A stretch of DNA of 64,000 bases from Patescibacteria group bacterium (GTDB lineage Bacteria; Patescibacteriota; WWE3; UBA101185; UBA10185). The notes under the pieces were generated by a model. That model did no database searches, was not told the origin of the DNA, and was given only the letters and a program-made list of their open reading frames with translations. The translations under genes and the position numbers were made by a program. Below are positions 5,365-34,209 of this stretch, in pieces (the first letter of the stretch is position 1; each line of letters opens with the position of its first letter). The DNA lies in the NCBI GenBank assembly GCA_049322215.1, contig JBMORU010000001.1:516023-580022 (forward strand), written 5' to 3'.

Positions 5365-5751
5365 ATGGCAAGAATTGCTGGTATAGATATACCTGAAAAT
5401 AAAAGAATAATTATAGCTTTAACCTACGTTAAAGGAATAGGTAAAACTAAGTCTAAAGAAATATTAGATGCCTGTGGCATTAATGAAAGCATTCGCGCGA
5501 AAGATTTATCAGACGCAGATGCAGCAAAAATAACTAAAAAAATTTCTGAGTTGGAAATTCCTGTAGAGGGTGAACTAAGAAGAATTATTAGTCAAAATAT
5601 TAGACGTTTAAAAGACATTAAAAGTTACCGTGGTTTAAGACATATGAAGGGTTTACCTGCCAGAGGTCAAAGAACCAGAAGTAACGCTAGAACAAGAAAA
5701 GGTAAAAAGAAGACAGTAGGGGGCATGAAGAAAAAGTTAACCAAGAAGTAA
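5365..5751 (+). CDS. rpsM: 30S ribosomal protein S13
   Basis: It begins [26 protein letters not shown] and has a basic C-terminal tail. Confidence 0.9.
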
Positions 5752-5774
5752 TTTATATTTAAATTGAGTAATTT

Positions 5775-6167
5775 ATGGCAAAAAAGGTAAAAAAATCAAA
5801 AAAAAGAAGTACTAAGCAAATACCTTCCACAGGTAGAGTTTATATAACTGCTGGGTTTAATAATACTATTATTACTATTACTGATGCAGAGGGTAATGCT
5901 TTATTTTCGGGAAGTTCCGGACAAGCTGGATTTAAGGGTTCAAGAAAATCAACCCCATATGCAGCTACAAAAGCTGCAGAATCGGTAGCTGGGCAAGCCG
6001 CAGATGCCGGATTAAAAGAAGTATCTGTTTTTGTTAAAGGTCCTGGTGCGGGGCGTGTAACATCTATAAAGGCACTTAAAAGCTCAGGTTTGCGTGTAAC
6101 CGCAATTTCTGATGTAACACCAATACCACATAATGGTTGTAGACCTAAGAAACGAAGGAGGGTTTAA
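5775..6167 (+). CDS. rpsK: 30S ribosomal protein S11
   Basis: It contains S11 core motifs ([22 protein letters not shown]). Confidence 0.9.
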
Positions 6168-6170
6168 TTT

Positions 6171-6773
6171 ATGGCACGATATACCGGTCCAAAATGCAGA
6201 TTATGTAGAAGAGAAGGTCAAAAGCTATACTTAAAGGGTTCACGTTGTGAAAGTGAAAAATGTGCTATAACTCGTAGAGGTCAAGCTCCTGGGCAACATG
6301 GAACATCAAGACGAAGAATGTCTCAGTACGGCCTTCAATTTAGAGAAAAACAAAAAGCCAAAAGAACTTATGGCATTTTAGAAAAACAGTTTAGAGGTTA
6401 TGTAGATCAAGCTTTGAAATCTAGAGGTGTTACAGGTACAAGATTAGTTCAACAATTAGAGTCTAGATTTGATAATATGGTTTATAGAAGTGGTTTTGCA
6501 GTGTCTCGTGCTCAGGCAAGACAATTCATTAGGTCTGGATTTTTTACTGTTAATGGTAAGGTTGTAACAATACCATCAATGCAGTTAAAAGTTGGAGACA
6601 TTATAAAGCCTGTTGACTTCGGAAGAATTCAATTAAGAGAAGGATTTATACTCCCTGAATGGCTTCAAGCCAACGTGAAGGAAAAGTTTGTAAAATTCGA
6701 AAGAATGCCTGAACTTGAGGACTTAAGTGGGGACATTAATGTTCAACTTATCGTTGAGTTCTATTCCAGGTAA
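6171..6773 (+). CDS. rpsD: 30S ribosomal protein S4
   Basis: It begins MARYTGPKCRLCRREG, a zinc-finger-type S4 N-terminus, and has an S4 domain. Confidence 0.9.
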   Translation: MARYTGPKCRLCRREGQKLYLKGSRCESEKCAITRRGQAPGQHGTSRRRMSQYGLQFREKQKAKRTYGILEKQFRGYVDQALKSRGVTGTRLVQQLESRFDNMVYRSGFAVSRAQARQFIRSGFFTVNGKVVTIPSMQLKVGDIIKPVDFGRIQLREGFILPEWLQANVKEKFVKFERMPELEDLSGDINVQLIVEFYSR

Positions 6774-8598: not shown

Positions 8599-9042
8599 AT
8601 GGCAAAAAAGCAAGAAATACAAGAAAAAACAAGTAAATCCCCAAAGAAAGGTTTTATAAGCGGAACTGGAAGAAGAAAAACTGCAGTTGCACGTGTTTTC
8701 CTATATCAAGACAAAGGTGATATAACAATAAATGATATGCCAATTGACGATTACTTTCCTACTGAAAATGAAGCACTAAAATGGAAGAAGCCATTTCACT
8801 TAGTTGGAATATCTCATCCTGAATCAAAATACTGGGCATCTATTAAAGTTCAAGGCTCTGGAAAATCCGCTCAATTAGATGCAGTAGTACATGGTATATC
8901 AAGAGCATTAGCTACTATTAACGAAGAATATCGTAAAATACTAAGTACTCAGGGCTTCTTAACTAGAGATTCTAGAATGGTTGAAAGAAAGAAATACTGG
9001 TTAAGGAAAGCTAGAAAAGCACCTCAATACTCAAAACGTTAA
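8599..9042 (+). CDS. rpsI: 30S ribosomal protein S9
   Basis: It has a ...GTGRRKTAVARV... core and the S9 C-terminal ...YSKR. Confidence 0.9.
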   Translation: MAKKQEIQEKTSKSPKKGFISGTGRRKTAVARVFLYQDKGDITINDMPIDDYFPTENEALKWKKPFHLVGISHPESKYWASIKVQGSGKSAQLDAVVHGISRALATINEEYRKILSTQGFLTRDSRMVERKKYWLRKARKAPQYSKR

Positions 9043-9335
9043 ATACTTTTTGGCGTCTCAAGCTCAGTAACAATATATTGAAGTTCACTCAAAGCAGTGG
9101 TTATTTGCTGAATTTTTTGCCGAAGCTTATTTTCGCTTGATTCAGTTAAACTTAAAAAAGAAACATTGTAAGCTTCAGCAATGCTATTTAACACCTTTAG
9201 TGGGGGAATGCACTTTCCGGTTTCGTAGGCTGAAATAGTTTTTCCTGAAACTCCAATTTTGTTGCCAAATCTTTCTTGCGACAGTTTATACTTATCTCTA
9301 ATTTCTTTAATTTTAAATCCTATATTTTTTTCCAT
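9039..9335 (-). CDS. XRE-family helix-turn-helix transcriptional regulator
   Basis: It is 98 aa with a classic HTH_3 segment (LSQERFGNKIGVSGKTISAYETGK). It converges on rpsI with a 4-nt overlap and diverges from radC. Confidence 0.75.
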   Translation of the reverse strand: MEKNIGFKIKEIRDKYKLSQERFGNKIGVSGKTISAYETGKCIPPLKVLNSIAEAYNVSFLSLTESSENKLRQKIQQITTALSELQYIVTELETPKSI

Positions 9336-9361
9336 AATCCAGCTTAATTAGAAATTAACAC

Positions 9362-9381
9362 ATTGCAATATGCATTGCAAT
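9362..9381. promoter_or_regulatory. Two copies of the 8-bp perfect palindrome ATTGCAAT separated by 4 bp (ATTGCAAT-ATGC-ATTGCAAT) in the divergent XRE/radC intergenic region
   Basis: It is read directly: 9362-9369 and 9374-9381. It is a candidate operator for the adjacent HTH repressor, or -35-like elements of the divergent promoters. Confidence 0.4.
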
Positions 9382-9389
9382 AATTTAAA

Positions 9390-10094
9390 TTGTTAAGTAT
9401 GCCAATGTCAGACACATTACTAAATGATGAGTTTCCTAGAGAAAAACTACTTAAGTTTGGTGCTGACCATTTGACTGATGCAGAATTAATCGCCGTTTTG
9501 CTTAGGGTTGGAGGTCGCGACACTTCATCAGTTTCGCTGGCAAGGTCTCTAATACGCCATTATGGAAATTTAAATGCTCTTTTAAATGTTCCGCTGCTTG
9601 AGTTGATAAATTATAAAAATATTGGTGTCGCAAAAGCTTGCACACTAAAAGCAACGTTTGAGTTGGGATTGCGTATAAATTTTAATAATACATCTCGTAA
9701 AAAGGTTAAAACTCCTAGAGATGTATTCAATGTTTTAAAGAAAGATTTTTTTTCAAAAAATCGAGAGCACTTTTTTTTATTATCAGTTGATTCGAGAAAC
9801 AGATTAATTTCTAAAGATTTATTAGCAATAGGAACTTTAAATGAAACCGTGGCACACCCAAGAGAGGTTTTTAAACGCGCGTTACAGGTAAGTGCTGTTG
9901 CCATAATAGTTGCTCACAACCACCCATCAGGAGATGTTACCCCAAGTCAGGAAGATATTGATTTAACAAATGTTCTAGCTAAGTCTGGAAAGCTTCTTGG
10001 AATACCGTTAATGGATCATGTAATTATTTCTCAAAATGAATATGTAAGTATACGGAGTTTGGGTCTTTTCACTATAGATAAAGTAGAAATTTAG
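9390..10094 (+). CDS. radC: RadC-like JAB/MPN domain protein (UPF0758)
   Basis: The N-terminus has a helix-hairpin-helix region (ELIAVLLRVGGRD...). The C-terminus has the JAMM motif HNHPSGDVTPSQEDIDLT. Confidence 0.85.
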   Translation: MLSMPMSDTLLNDEFPREKLLKFGADHLTDAELIAVLLRVGGRDTSSVSLARSLIRHYGNLNALLNVPLLELINYKNIGVAKACTLKATFELGLRINFNNTSRKKVKTPRDVFNVLKKDFFSKNREHFFLLSVDSRNRLISKDLLAIGTLNETVAHPREVFKRALQVSAVAIIVAHNHPSGDVTPSQEDIDLTNVLAKSGKLLGIPLMDHVIISQNEYVSIRSLGLFTIDKVEI

Positions 10095-10110
10095 TAAGAA
10101 AGGAGGTGTT

Positions 10111-10689
10111 ATGAAAAAATTTATTGCAAGTTATGGTTTGATACTAACCATTCTTATCACGACTTTAGGTGTTTCTGCAGCAGCTTTCACTGACTCTGCA
10201 AAAATACTTGGTGCAACTTTTAGTGTTGGTAGTTCTGATCTAAAGTTGTTAATGGACTTAGCAGGTTCTTTAGATGCTTCAAATCTTTATGACGAACTAG
10301 TCGGGCCTACATTTGAGAATATAAGTCCGAATTGGGAAACTAACTATTTGGTGAAGCTTTACAATAATTCACCTGAAGATGTGGTGCTTTTTACAGTGGC
10401 AGATTACGAAACGGCTAACGACCCTAATGAATTGCGTCAGGATATAAATGTAGAACCGTTTCTTTGGGATGACAACAATAATAATGGGGTTTTAGATGCC
10501 GGTGAGCTTGGAAATTCCTTAGGTGTAAAAACCATAGTTAAGTGGAAAACAGAGGGGTTTGATTTAGGCCTTTTGCAGTCAGGAGAGGTATTACCTATGG
10601 TTTTTAAGTTTAGTACAGGTTCTGTATCTGCTGCTAAGCAAGGGAGTACGGCAACATTTGATTTTTTAGTTGAGTCAGTTAGTTTATAA
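10111..10689 (+). CDS. TasA/camelysin-like secreted protein with SipW-cognate class signal peptide
   Basis: An N-terminal signal ends in ...TLGVSAAAFTDSA, comparable to the TasA-type AAFND cleavage region. The protein is about 190 aa and sits immediately upstream of a SipW-type signal peptidase. Confidence 0.55.
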   Translation: MKKFIASYGLILTILITTLGVSAAAFTDSAKILGATFSVGSSDLKLLMDLAGSLDASNLYDELVGPTFENISPNWETNYLVKLYNNSPEDVVLFTVADYETANDPNELRQDINVEPFLWDDNNNNGVLDAGELGNSLGVKTIVKWKTEGFDLGLLQSGEVLPMVFKFSTGSVSAAKQGSTATFDFLVESVSL

Positions 10690-10713
10690 AGTTTAATCAC
10701 ATTTCCCGGGAAT

Positions 10714-11169
10714 GTGTTAAACATAATGAAATATTTAATTATTTTTGTTTCGTTCGTTTTGTTTGCAGCTGTAGGTATTTATAAGTTTGATACTTTTGTA
10801 ATAAATGGTGCATCTATGGAGCCAACTTTGCAAAAAGGAGACTTAATAGTGACAAAAATCTATTCTACCTACGATGTTGATGATGTTGTTACATATAATC
10901 TATATTCAGGTACAAGTTTAATTACGCATCGCATTGTAAGTAAAGAAGTGTTTAAGGACAAAAATTTGTATAAAACTAAAGGTGATAACAATAATGTTGA
11001 GGATCCGTTTTATATTGCTGACTATGAAATTGTTGGTAAGGTGCTATTTGCTTTTCCATACTTGGGAGCACTAATTACGTTTATTTTCAAACCTCTAACA
11101 TTATTAGTTTTATTCTATGTTCCTTTAGGGATAATATTAGGTTATAAGTTAGCTGAAATTAAAGGCTAA
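10714..11169 (+). CDS. sipW: signal peptidase I, SipW-like (archaeal/ER type, S26B)
   Basis: It has an N-terminal TM segment, then GASMEPTL (catalytic Ser box), ..THRIV (His box) and GDNN. It lacks the bacterial LepB Lys box. Confidence 0.75.
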   Translation: MLNIMKYLIIFVSFVLFAAVGIYKFDTFVINGASMEPTLQKGDLIVTKIYSTYDVDDVVTYNLYSGTSLITHRIVSKEVFKDKNLYKTKGDNNNVEDPFYIADYEIVGKVLFAFPYLGALITFIFKPLTLLVLFYVPLGIILGYKLAEIKG

Positions 11170-11201: not shown

Positions 11202-13778
11202 ATGCTTACTGTGCCCAAAGAGATATATGACTTCATAAACTGGTATTTTGTTAAAGCTCCGCGTGTGCTTTTTGTGACCTTGCTTAGAATACTGCGTCAC
11301 ACAAACAATGAGGTGGCTTTTACACTTAATATTCGTCTACTTTTCACCCCTTTGTTTGGTGACTATACCAAAGTGGGTAGAATAATAGGCTTCTTTTTTA
11401 GAATTATTTGGATGTTAGTTGGTTCGGTAGCGCTTGTTTTCATATCTATTTTACTTTTTATCGCTCCAATTATATGGTTTTTAGCCCCTTTATTATTGGC
11501 TATTTATATTAAGCTGTGGATTATACCTTTAATTGTAATGCTTTTTGTTGCACGAGAGTATTTTACTTTTGGTACCCCCTTAAGGCGTGTATACCAAGTG
11601 AATCCTTCAAATCCGTTGGAGTGTTTTAGACCTGAAGTTAAGGATTATATTGAACAGTTGAAAACAGTGGGTAGTGAAGCCTTGCCTTTATTTTTAAAGC
11701 ATAAATCAAGTCAGTATATATTGAAAAGAACCGAGCTCTTAAAGCAGGATTTTCTTTTAGCTTTTGTGGAACTTTATTCAAGGTTGCAAAATGTGCCTTT
11801 AGTAGAAACATCATATGGACTGGCAAAAAAATATGAAACCAGGTATGTAGAAATGGAGCATTTACTTTTAGCAGTTTTCTTAAGTGTTCCTAATATTGAT
11901 ACTGTTCTATCTTCTTATGGGTCTTCTCTTGAGGACTTTGAAGACACAATAGAATGGGTAGTTTCAAAAAGAGAAGAGTTATCAAAGCTATATGTTTGGC
12001 AAGAAGACTATGAAATGCCTCTTATGGGAGGTACAAATCGTGGTTTAACAGGTCGGGTTACTAAATACCTTGATCAGTATTCTGATGACTACACCGAAAT
12101 GGCCAAATATGGACGTTTCAAAAAAGTAGTTGGCAGAGATGCGGAAATATCAGAAGTTGCTGAAATACTGAGTAGTTCTAATAGTAACGTATTAATTATA
12201 GGTGAACCCGGAAGCGGAAAGTCTTCTATTATGAAAGGTATTGCCGATAGAGTTATAAGAGGAACGGATTTTGAGTCTTTAAGGTTTCGTCGTATTGTTG
12301 CTCTTAATACAGGCCTTCTTATAGCGGGTGCATCTACCTCGGGTGATTTAGCAGGCAGAATGGCGAACATTATGGAAGATGTTGAAGGATCTGGTGGCAT
12401 AATTTTGTTTATTGACGAAATTCACACTTTGTTAGCAGGTTCTGGGCAAAGCAGTGCCGAAATGTCTAGTGCCTTTTCTGTTTTAGAGCCACGCTTAGCG
12501 GCAGGAAAAAATCAATTTGTTGGTGCTACTTCAAATGAAAACTACAGAAAGTATATAGAGCCTAATGGTGCTTTTGCACGCTTATTTGAAATTGTTCGTT
12601 TAGCCGAAGCATCTGAAGAAGATACCCTAGAAATTTTAAAAGTAAATGCAGATGAAATTGAAAAAGAAACAGGTGTAATAGTTTCGTACCCCGCATTAAG
12701 AAAAATTATTCAGCTGTCTAAAAAACTAATACATGAGCGGGTATTTCCCGATAAAGCTTTGGACATTTTAAATAGAAGTGTTGCTTCTTTTGGGAGAACT
12801 AAGGGTTATTTAACGGTTGATGATGTGGCCGATGAAGTATCTAAAATAACAAGTGTTCCTGTTTCGGCAATTTCTCAAGATGAATCTTCTACACTGCTAA
12901 ACATTGAAGACAAAATGAGGCAAATGGTGGTTGGACAAGACCAAGCCATAGTTCAAATAGGGCGCTCATTAAAGCGCGCACGAGTAGGTATAAGAGATGA
13001 ATCTAAGCCAATAGCCAGCTTTTTATTTGTAGGCACTACAGGTGTAGGGAAAACTCAAACTGCTAAAGCGTTGGCAAAAAACTATTTTGGTACAAATAAT
13101 ACGATGATTCGTTTAGATATGAGTGAATATCAACAACCAGATAGCATTAACCGCTTAATTGGGGATCCTTCAGGCAGTTCTAAAGGTCAGTTAACTGATG
13201 CTGTTCGTTCTAAGCCTTTTTCTCTTATTTTGCTTGATGAAATTGAGAAAGCTTATTCCAATGTTTTACTTACATTTTTACAAGTATTGGATGATGGTCG
13301 TTTAACGGATTCTGTGGGTCATGTTGTTGATTTTACCAATTCTATAATAATTGCTACCAGTAATACAGGCACGCGAGCAATACAAGAAATTTCTGATAAG
13401 GGTGGTACTTTCGAAGAAATGCAAGATGCTGCAATGCGTGAGGTTAGAGCTAAGTTTGCTCCCGAGTTTTTAAATCGTTTTACTGGAATTATTGTATTTA
13501 GGCCATTAACTATTCCAACAGTGCGTGCAATTGCAGACATACTTTTGGAAGGTGTAAGACGCTTAGCTGATGAAAAGAAAGTTAAAATTTCGTTTTCACA
13601 GCAGTTAATAGACGAGCTAGTACGTAGAGGATTTAACCCAAGCTGGGGTGCGCGTCCGTTAGCACGTGTTATAGAAGATACTGTAGAAACATACTTAGCC
13701 ACAAAAATTTTACAAGGTGAAATTAAAATGGGTGACACAGTAGAACTAGGTATGGAAGTTTTTGAAGAAAGCTATTAA
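11202..13778 (+). CDS. membrane-anchored Clp/Hsp100-family double AAA+ ATPase
   Basis: The first roughly 125 aa contain 2-3 predicted TM helices. A Clp_N-like repeat (EHLLLAVFL) and [11 protein letters not shown] follow. AAA1 has Walker A GEPGSGKS and Walker [12 protein letters not shown]2 has Walker [16 protein letters not shown] and Walker [11 protein letters not shown], then sensor TSNTG. No IGF/LGF ClpP-docking tripeptide is seen. Confidence 0.8.
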
Positions 13779-34162: not shown

Positions 34163-34183
34163 ATTTCTTTGACTAACAAAAAA

Positions 34184-34209
34184 GGGCTGGTTAAAACCAG
34201 CCCTTTTTT
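34184..34209. terminator. Bidirectional intrinsic terminator (gggctggt-taaa-accagccc, flanked by A5 and T6)
   Basis: A perfect 8-bp GC-rich stem lies between convergent hup (+) and the histidine kinase (-). Confidence 0.8.

Follow-up and report, generated by a model that had tools for sequence, protein, structure and literature searches.

In a 64,000-nucleotide (nt) stretch of a Patescibacteria genome of the WWE3 lineage (assembly GCA_049322215.1, contig JBMORU010000001.1, positions 516,023 to 580,022; hereafter the window), two neighbouring plus-strand genes encode a secreted acidic protein of 192 amino acids (aa) and a signal peptidase I of the archaeal/endoplasmic reticulum (ER) type. Judged by sequence, the 192-aa protein, referred to below as the subunit, represents a divergent branch of the TasA superfamily (TasA/camelysin, AbpX, AbpA, and CanA) that is specific to WWE3/Patescibacteria. 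Sequence comparison supports this homology and the class of the peptidase well, and we hold both with high confidence. We further consider it reasonably probable that the locus as a whole specifies a TasA-like subunit that forms donor-strand fibrils, has its N-terminus cut by the adjacent peptidase and carries a calcium-binding EF-hand.

In the proposed mechanism, the pre-protein would be exported via Sec, and the membrane-anchored peptidase encoded 36 nt downstream would cut it after Ala24 (S-A-A|A-F-T-D), so that the mature protein would begin with a segment carrying Phe at its second and Asp at its fourth position. The N-terminal aa ~25-36 would then serve as a donor strand inserted into the β-sandwich of the next subunit, giving extracellular fibrils without a chaperone. 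The EF-hand loop at aa 121-133 would bind calcium and stabilise or gate assembly, the role that calcium plays for AbpX and cannulae. A strong Shine-Dalgarno sequence on the subunit gene, none on the peptidase gene and a hairpin between the two would yield far more subunit than peptidase. The parts of the gene pair are as follows.

10101..10106, plus strand: Shine-Dalgarno sequence AGGAGG, read from the sequence, 4 nt 5′ of the subunit ATG and 7 nt 3′ of the radC stop codon
10111..10182, plus strand: signal peptide, aa 1-24, with n-region MKK, a hydrophobic core (hydropathy peak at aa 3-28) and c-region S-A-A
10183..10218, plus strand: candidate N-terminal donor strand, aa 25-36, AFTDSAKILGAT, with conserved F2/D4, aligned to TasA residues 28-38
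10183..10689, plus strand: mature acidic β-sandwich domain, aa 25-192, and stop codon, from an AlphaFold2 (AF2) model, hhalign and composition
10471..10509, plus strand: EF-hand-type calcium-binding loop, aa 121-133 (D121-L133), DNNNNGVLDAGEL, an exact PROSITE PS00018 match preceded by the conserved W119
10714..11169, plus strand: archaeal/ER-type (S26B) signal peptidase I, from TIGR02228 and the SEC11A/C matches in the PDB

The subunit open reading frame (ORF; 10111-10689, plus strand; sequence MKKFIASYGLILTILITTLGVSAAAFTDSA..., opening residues MKKFIASYGLILTILITTLGVSAAAFTDSAKILGATFSVGSSDLKLL) encodes a protein 100% identical to one annotated as 'hypothetical protein ACOZAO_02860'. An initial annotation of the stretch had described a 192-aa secreted protein followed immediately by a peptidase with SMEPTL, THRIV, and GDNN boxes; both ORFs and all three boxes are present. 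It had overlooked the EF-hand-type loop and the intergenic hairpin.

Relationship of the subunit to the TasA superfamily

The subunit has 109 homologs at 42-61% identity, nearly all of 190-200 aa, in WWE3 and Patescibacteria assemblies, a few of which already bear the name 'SipW-dependent-type signal peptide-containing protein' at NCBI and JGI. When 81 aligned homologs were scanned singly, 36 matched TIGR04088 at E values up to 1 (best E 6.3e-6) and 21 matched PF12389 (best E 1.6e-4). A family-profile HMMER search of 1.84 billion representatives gave 284 matches, with a core family of 33 clusters at E values up to 1e-30. Beyond the core were proteins of 270-600 aa whose N-terminal ~120-190 residues align to the family profile; P0179, P0184, P0185, P0207, P0223, and P0231 score above the curated thresholds of PF12389 and of TIGR04088. 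Profile-profile alignment with hhalign matched the family to P0179 with 99.1% probability (E 2e-18, 176 columns) and to P0184 with 98.5% probability (177 columns). Alignments of this length to proteins recognised by PF12389 and TIGR04088 indicate that the whole domain is homologous, beyond the signal region. A broadened profile (A3) was aligned to Bacillus subtilis TasA, using a TasA sequence checked to be identical to PDB 8AUR, with 94.4% probability (E 9.4e-8) over ~102 columns covering the N-terminal ~110 residues of the subunit. In this alignment, GGTWA|AFND of TasA stands opposite GVSAA|AFTD, placing A25 against TasA A28, the first mature residue in 8AUR.

Cleavage of the subunit is accordingly predicted after A24 (SAA|AFTD), exactly where the TasA site aligns. 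Of the 81 family members, 78 have Ala at position -1 and 79 have Thr, Ala, Gly, or Ser at position -3; in the mature protein, Phe occupies position 2 in 78 members and Asp position 4 in 77. This AFxD...TF N-terminus is the best-conserved stretch of the family. In TasA fibres, the donor strand comprises residues 28-38 and is anchored by F29, I32, and F39. The hhalign register maps F29 and F39 to subunit residues F26 and F37, each at least 90% conserved in the family, and by analogy the segment of aa 25-36 may act as a donor strand. An N-terminus of the type IV pilin kind was considered and rejected: the hydrophobic stretch precedes the motif, and the sequence contains no G|F-x-x-x-E.

The mature protein has 168 residues, an isoelectric point (pI) of 4.05, 14.9% Asp plus Glu and no Cys; its sequence contains no C-terminal anchor or sorting motif. 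AF2 models of the full-length and mature-only proteins had predicted local distance difference test (pLDDT) values of 89.3 and 86.6, respectively, and are all-β with one helix. Residues 1-9 are disordered in the mature-only model (pLDDT below 50).

Several results weigh against reading the subunit as a TasA-like fibre protein. The window protein itself matched neither TIGR04088 (cutoff 19 bits; E up to 10) nor the TasA equivalog NF046066, and gave no match to PF12389 (Peptidase_M73; gathering score 22.5 bits). The PF12389 matches of ten family members that were inspected all lay below the gathering score, most of them confined to residues ~1-45. Whether the query was the protein by itself, the family profile A1 or the broadened A3, sequence searches of the PDB returned only the SdrD loop or noise, with no TasA, CalY, or AbpX. 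Foldseek searches of the PDB with the full-length and mature-only models gave weak matches only (E 1e-4 to 1e-2, template modelling (TM) scores 0.25-0.45), and TasA (5OF1, 8AUR) was absent from the top 50 with either model; removal of the signal helix brought no better matches. No paralog, minor subunit, TapA-like nucleator, or anchor gene was found in the window. The acidic calcium sites of AbpX lie between protomers, and the EF-hand site of the window subunit differs from these.

The failure of the direct hidden Markov model (HMM) searches is not taken as a refutation, because the family-level and profile-profile tests were positive. The TasA-like, SipW-cognate assignment of the initial annotation thus holds for the family, through the 36 TIGR04088 matches, the 21 weak PF12389 matches and the hhalign results, and fails for the window protein searched by itself. 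As to the TasA-like jelly-roll fold that it expected of the mature domain, the model is all-β at a pLDDT of 87-89, TasA was absent from the top 50 matches, and the highest TM-score to a fibre subunit was 0.45. The weak Foldseek lists were enriched for donor-strand fibre subunits (CfaB, FimA, FimG, CS20, CanA, Hyper2, and AbpA); generic β-sandwiches (GOLD, SUN, and complement MG domains) scored like them. PF12389 and TIGR04088 in their curated form miss the window subunit and most of its family, so that surveys built on them undercount such systems.

PF12389 bears the name 'Camelysin metallo-endopeptidase', and the weak matches to it in 21 of the 81 members could be taken to mean that the subunit is a camelysin-like (peptidase M73) metalloprotease. 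We reject this assignment as highly improbable. The subunit sequence contains neither HExxH nor any other metalloprotease motif, its sole match to a metalloprotease model (NF045830) scored 10.5 bits against a cutoff of 175, and the proteins of the TasA family are structural fibre subunits.

The loop at aa 121-133 is likewise a family trait. D121 and E132 never vary, and conservation of G126 reaches at least 90%; among 103 full-length homologs, the strict PS00018 pattern occurs in 44 and a loose liganding pattern in 91, compared with a 0.14% match rate for the strict pattern in shuffled sequences. The sequence of the loop suggests that it binds calcium. The motif W-x-D-x-N-x-N-G-x-x-D-x-G-E to which it belongs also makes up the calcium sites in SdrD B domains (PF17210), which accounts for the weak matches to SdrD_B, DUF7151, and EF-hand models and for the many giant SdrD_B repeat proteins that the profile reached through the loop segment alone. 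The PF12389-positive proteins that bridge to the wider superfamily have no such loop, indicating that it is an insertion typical of the WWE3/Patescibacteria branch. A relative with the same W-x-D...GE loop (P0134/P0259) falls into one cluster with a protein from a Candidatus Bathyarchaeia archaeon that bears the name 'SipW-dependent-type signal peptide-containing protein'. By this clustering, both domains of life are represented in the wider group, a hint at cross-domain distribution or transfer of the loop-bearing branch.

Whether such a protein would polymerise has to be weighed against a second possibility, namely that the subunit is of TasA ancestry and serves as a non-polymerising secreted or wall-associated calcium-binding protein, acting, for example, as an adhesin in monomeric form, as part of a surface coat, or as a buffer for calcium. 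Consistent with this alternative, the subunit matches known fibre subunits only weakly in fold, its EF-hand loop is like those of the non-polymerising SdrD B domains, the window contains no nucleator or anchor gene and the C-terminal tail through which TasA (residues 239-261) makes a second contact between subunits is missing. However, the AFxD...TF motif, corresponding to the TasA donor strand, is the part that the family has conserved most; the monomer model leaves the N-terminus disordered, and AbpX and CanA polymerise without chaperones or nucleators. We judge a non-polymerising protein to be unlikely. Donor-strand polymerisation of the mature protein, made calcium-dependent by the EF-hand loop, is plausible from the parallels with TasA, AbpX, and CanA, with the balance close to even, and a fibre or matrix function of the subunit would follow the same analogy.

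The adjacent signal peptidase and its conservation

The peptidase ORF (10714-11169, plus strand) encodes 151 aa from a GTG start; the source assembly starts it at the ATG at 10726, giving 147 aa. The protein passes TIGR02228 (sigpep_I_arch) with 88.9 bits against a cutoff of 51.85, over profile positions 14-156 of 158. It fails the LepB-type model TIGR02227 (37.2 bits, cutoff 47), which it matches with its N-terminal part only, and the Bacillus SipW equivalog NF046067 (64.9 bits, cutoff 190). Its top PDB matches are human SEC11A and SEC11C (E 1.3e-5). In the SEC11A alignment, the SMEP, HR, and GDNN boxes match at Ser34, His72, and Asp91 (151-aa numbering), and His72 sits where LepB-type enzymes have a Lys. 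The three residues are encoded at nt 10813-10815 (Ser34, in SMEPTL), 10927-10929 (His72, in THRIV), and 10984-10986 (Asp91, in GDNN). Hydropathy analysis located hydrophobic segments at the N-terminus (aa ~1-30) and the C-terminus (aa ~106-149). The archaeal/ER-type assignment made in the initial annotation is confirmed by these comparisons. That annotation had named the absence of HMM matches together with a LepB-type peptidase as the outcome that would speak against it; the peptidase fell below the LepB-type cutoff. By sequence, the enzyme belongs to S26B, the class of SipW, with no ortholog-level match to SipW itself.

Conservation of the pair was followed in 48 species-level loci from 48 different assemblies, each with ±8 kb of flanking sequence. 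The order rplM, rpsI, XRE (minus strand), radC, subunit, [peptidase], membrane ClpB-like gene, prfB is strongly conserved, and every locus contains a single subunit gene. An S26 peptidase gene lies immediately 3′ of the subunit gene in about 22 of the 48 genomes and nowhere else within ±8 kb; an adjacency that recurs this often indicates that the pairing is not due to chance. Presence of the peptidase follows clades: one major clade has it nearly always, and from the other it is mostly missing, apart from a few scattered genomes, the window among them. The AAFxD motif is retained in both peptidase-bearing and peptidase-less groups. The pairing is thus probably ancestral and dispensable at this site, and where the adjacent gene is gone, either it has moved or another peptidase suffices.

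The same distribution is the main argument for a third explanation, in which the enzyme is the general, possibly the only, signal peptidase I of the cell, its adjacency to the subunit gene reflects the housekeeping synteny of a streamlined genome, and the subunit is one substrate of many. About 26 of the 48 genomes have no peptidase at the site and keep the same cleavage motif, a result that also counts against the proposed mechanism: strict dedication of the enzyme to the subunit is unproven, and another peptidase may act on it. The enzyme is minimal in size (147-151 aa), and the pair lies inside a conserved housekeeping block made up of ribosomal proteins, radC, the pair itself, a clpB-like gene, and prfB. 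No second S26 gene was found in the window, and a jackhmmer search with B. subtilis SipS, used as a homology probe only, found no LepB-type peptidase in the window or in ~650 kb of related loci, a result that is uninformative for whole genomes. Against a general enzyme, the peptidase, when present, is always immediately 3′ of the subunit gene, and the same layout recurs in TasA/SipW and in AbpX/TIGR02228. The TIGR04088-type N-terminus is, moreover, defined by its co-occurrence with SipW/ER-type peptidases. On this evidence, a general housekeeping role that would explain the adjacency is a minority possibility, and the adjacent peptidase probably, if not securely, generates the A25 N-terminus.

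Two of the related loci differ in gene content. In one genome (L042), the TasA-like gene is split (L042:1395-1544 and L042:8001-8477) by an insertion of ~6.4 kb that holds, among other ORFs, one resembling a DNA methyltransferase gene (5397-6341, minus strand). The split indicates that the TasA-like gene is dispensable or lost its function recently in that genome, perhaps through a mobile restriction-modification element. In another genome (L006), which also has the adjacent peptidase, two tandem genes ~6 kb downstream (L006:15141-15797 and L006:15881-16492) encode proteins with N-termini of the SipW-cognate type (GVTRAVFTD... and GATGAVFSA...), suggesting that some WWE3 genomes have extra TasA-superfamily substrates.

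The spacer hairpin and the neighbouring genes

The pair lies directly 3′ of a block of ribosomal protein genes with secY, rpoA, and rplM-rpsI, in DNA of ~34% GC; SecY and SecDF are both encoded within the window. A gap of 16 nt separates the radC stop codon from the subunit ATG, and the spacer between the subunit and peptidase genes is 36 nt long, counted to the ATG at 10726. The subunit gene has a strong Shine-Dalgarno sequence and the peptidase gene has none. Two further features belong to the locus.

10691..10722, plus strand: RNA hairpin with a CCCGGG apex at 10705-10710, -11.9 kcal/mol, z -2.9, with covariation
9039..9335, minus strand: XRE-family helix-turn-helix (HTH) gene, 98 aa, from Pfam HTH_3/HTH_31 matches of the called gene, divergent from radC and the subunit gene

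The 14-bp hairpin lies within the spacer and ends 3 nt before the peptidase ATG. Stable hairpins (z below -2) directly follow the subunit stop codon in 32 of the 48 loci, with or without a peptidase gene, and CC[CG]GG occurs within 70 nt of that stop codon in 18 of the 48, compared with about 1 expected from base composition. An alignment (A4) of 41-nt segments from 16 of these CC[CG]GG-bearing sequences, comprising the window, L001:8579-8619, L012:8582-8622, L018:818-858, and 12 more, has compensatory changes at all eight of its eight stem pairs. Paired cells made up 78% of this alignment, compared with 56% in shuffles, and the covariation score was 0.745, compared with 0.348; none of 500 shuffles reached either value, and slid registers scored lower. 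The hairpin has no match in Rfam, and a covariance model found no further copies in 698 kb.

A generic terminator with a CCCGGG apex was considered as an explanation and rejected, since the other six CCCGGG sites of the window form no such hairpin and the covariance model found no others in the 698 kb. The hexamer itself is frequent, with seven sites in the window (4811, 10705, 21079, 26698, 32574, 34219, and 56894) compared with 2.06 +/- 1.25 expected, and none of 100 shuffles reached seven; three of the sites are intergenic and just 3′ of genes, and only the one after the TasA-like gene is the apex of a hairpin. A consensus scan found no intrinsic terminator between the two genes, and the hairpin has no U-tract. 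Elsewhere in the window, a textbook intrinsic terminator (34178-34209; 14-bp GC-rich stem with a U-tract, region z -3.75) follows an HU-like gene. Canonical terminators therefore exist in this genome, and the U-less hairpin of the subunit gene stands out from them. The hairpin is a gene-specific RNA element. Its role could be that of an mRNA 3′ stabiliser, an attenuator, or a protein-binding loop; together with the Shine-Dalgarno asymmetry, it may set a high ratio of subunit to peptidase through 3′-end stabilisation, attenuation, or occlusion of the peptidase start.

Nearly all related loci have the XRE gene in this place, and its product is a candidate regulator. The intergenic region beside it (9336-9404) contains many overlapping AT-rich inverted repeats, such as 9352-9369/9374-9391. 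The arrangement recalls the control of tapA-sipW-tasA by SinR, as a resemblance only and a candidate parallel. Directly 3′ of the pair (11202-13778, plus strand) lies a gene for an 858-aa ClpB/ClpA-like double-AAA+ protein, in which a long hydrophobic, apparently membrane-embedded N-terminal region replaces the normal Clp N-domain. This gene is kept beside the pair in most related loci and is absent in about eight.

Significance and comparison with known systems

Cells of the candidate phyla radiation (CPR)/Patescibacteria presumably live fixed to other cells or to surfaces, and to our knowledge almost nothing is known of their surface structures other than type IV pili. If the proposed mechanism is correct, a matrix fibre of the TasA/AbpX type, so far characterised in Firmicutes and hyperthermophilic archaea, would be present in a streamlined uncultivated lineage, encoded there by a strongly conserved single-copy gene embedded in the core genome. 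With a mature protein of 168 residues and a textbook EF-hand loop, the system would offer a small, tractable case for how calcium gates chaperone-free donor-strand polymerisation and for the need of an ER-type signal peptidase to make an exact donor-strand N-terminus. A wider generalisation is doubtful and we offer it tentatively: every WWE3/Katanobacteria-type cell might carry a single-copy minimal fibre system at a fixed core-genome site beside the ribosomal operon, made up of one subunit, accompanied or not by one ER-type peptidase, and lacking any chaperone, usher, nucleator, or anchor. Assembly would be gated by an intramolecular EF-hand calcium switch and expression set by the 3′ hairpin, and the product would be the main extracellular filament or matrix of these ultra-small cells and a candidate for host or surface attachment.

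In the literature surveyed, the SipW/TasA systems of CPR bacteria are described no further than in a single survey sentence noting PF12389 homologs in Patescibacteria (Wang et al., 2022, PMC9245690). The tapA-sipW-tasA operon of B. subtilis likewise encodes a secreted subunit together with a signal peptidase of the ER/archaeal type. The two cleavage sites lie in matching contexts (TWA|AFND and SAA|AFTD), and TasA F29 and F39 are kept as F26 and F37. The window differs in having no TapA and in the gene order, with the subunit preceding the peptidase. The mature domain is also shorter than that of TasA (168 and 234 aa), has no C-terminal tail and contains an EF-hand loop, which TasA does not.

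Among fibre subunits, CanA, Hyper2, and AbpA (PDB 9H8B, 9HDI, 9BAB, and 7UEG) gave the top TM-scores in the fold searches, all below 0.5: CanA 9H8B TMt 0.45 and 9HDI TMq 0.40, Hyper2 9BAB 0.43, and AbpA 7UEG 0.34, with a probability of 0.98 for CanA/Hyper2. All three are chaperone-free donor-strand polymers, and that of CanA is calcium-dependent. In contrast to the window subunit they are archaeal and form tubes or bundles, and no sequence similarity to the window subunit was detected. The SdrD B domain (PF17210) shares the W-x-D-x-N-x-N-G-x-x-D-x-G-E motif; the match (13.3 bits, cutoff 29.7) is limited to the loop and the strands beside it, whereas the rest of the subunit is of the TasA type with no CnaB-like B repeat.

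The closest known system is that of Pyrodictium abyssi, in which AbpX and a downstream TIGR02228 peptidase constitute a two-gene 'minimalistic' locus (bioRxiv 10.64898/2026.01.04.697558). The hallmarks of the AbpX family are a pI of ~4, ~15% acidic residues, an aromatic residue at mature position 2 and an acidic one at position 4 (bioRxiv 10.64898/2026.01.04.697558); the window subunit has a pI of 4.05, 14.9% acidic residues, and F2 and D4 in 78 and 77 of the 81 members, respectively. This likeness is drawn from the described features and the locus layout. In both systems, a TIGR02228 peptidase is encoded downstream of, and on the same strand as, a TasA-superfamily subunit of ~160-170 mature residues, the subunit N-termini are disordered in monomer predictions and calcium dependence has been proposed. 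The hosts differ, a Patescibacteria/WWE3 bacterium here and a hyperthermophilic archaeon for AbpX, as do the calcium sites, with a candidate intra-subunit EF-hand loop here and acidic sites shared by three protomers in AbpX. Most AbpX-associated peptidases are reported to have ten transmembrane helices, whereas the window peptidase has only its N- and C-terminal hydrophobic segments. The pair is a divergent new case of a known two-gene fibre module and no new kind of system; it is distinguished by its place outside the curated models, an intramolecular EF-hand loop, a fixed core-genome position, and a dedicated 3′ hairpin.

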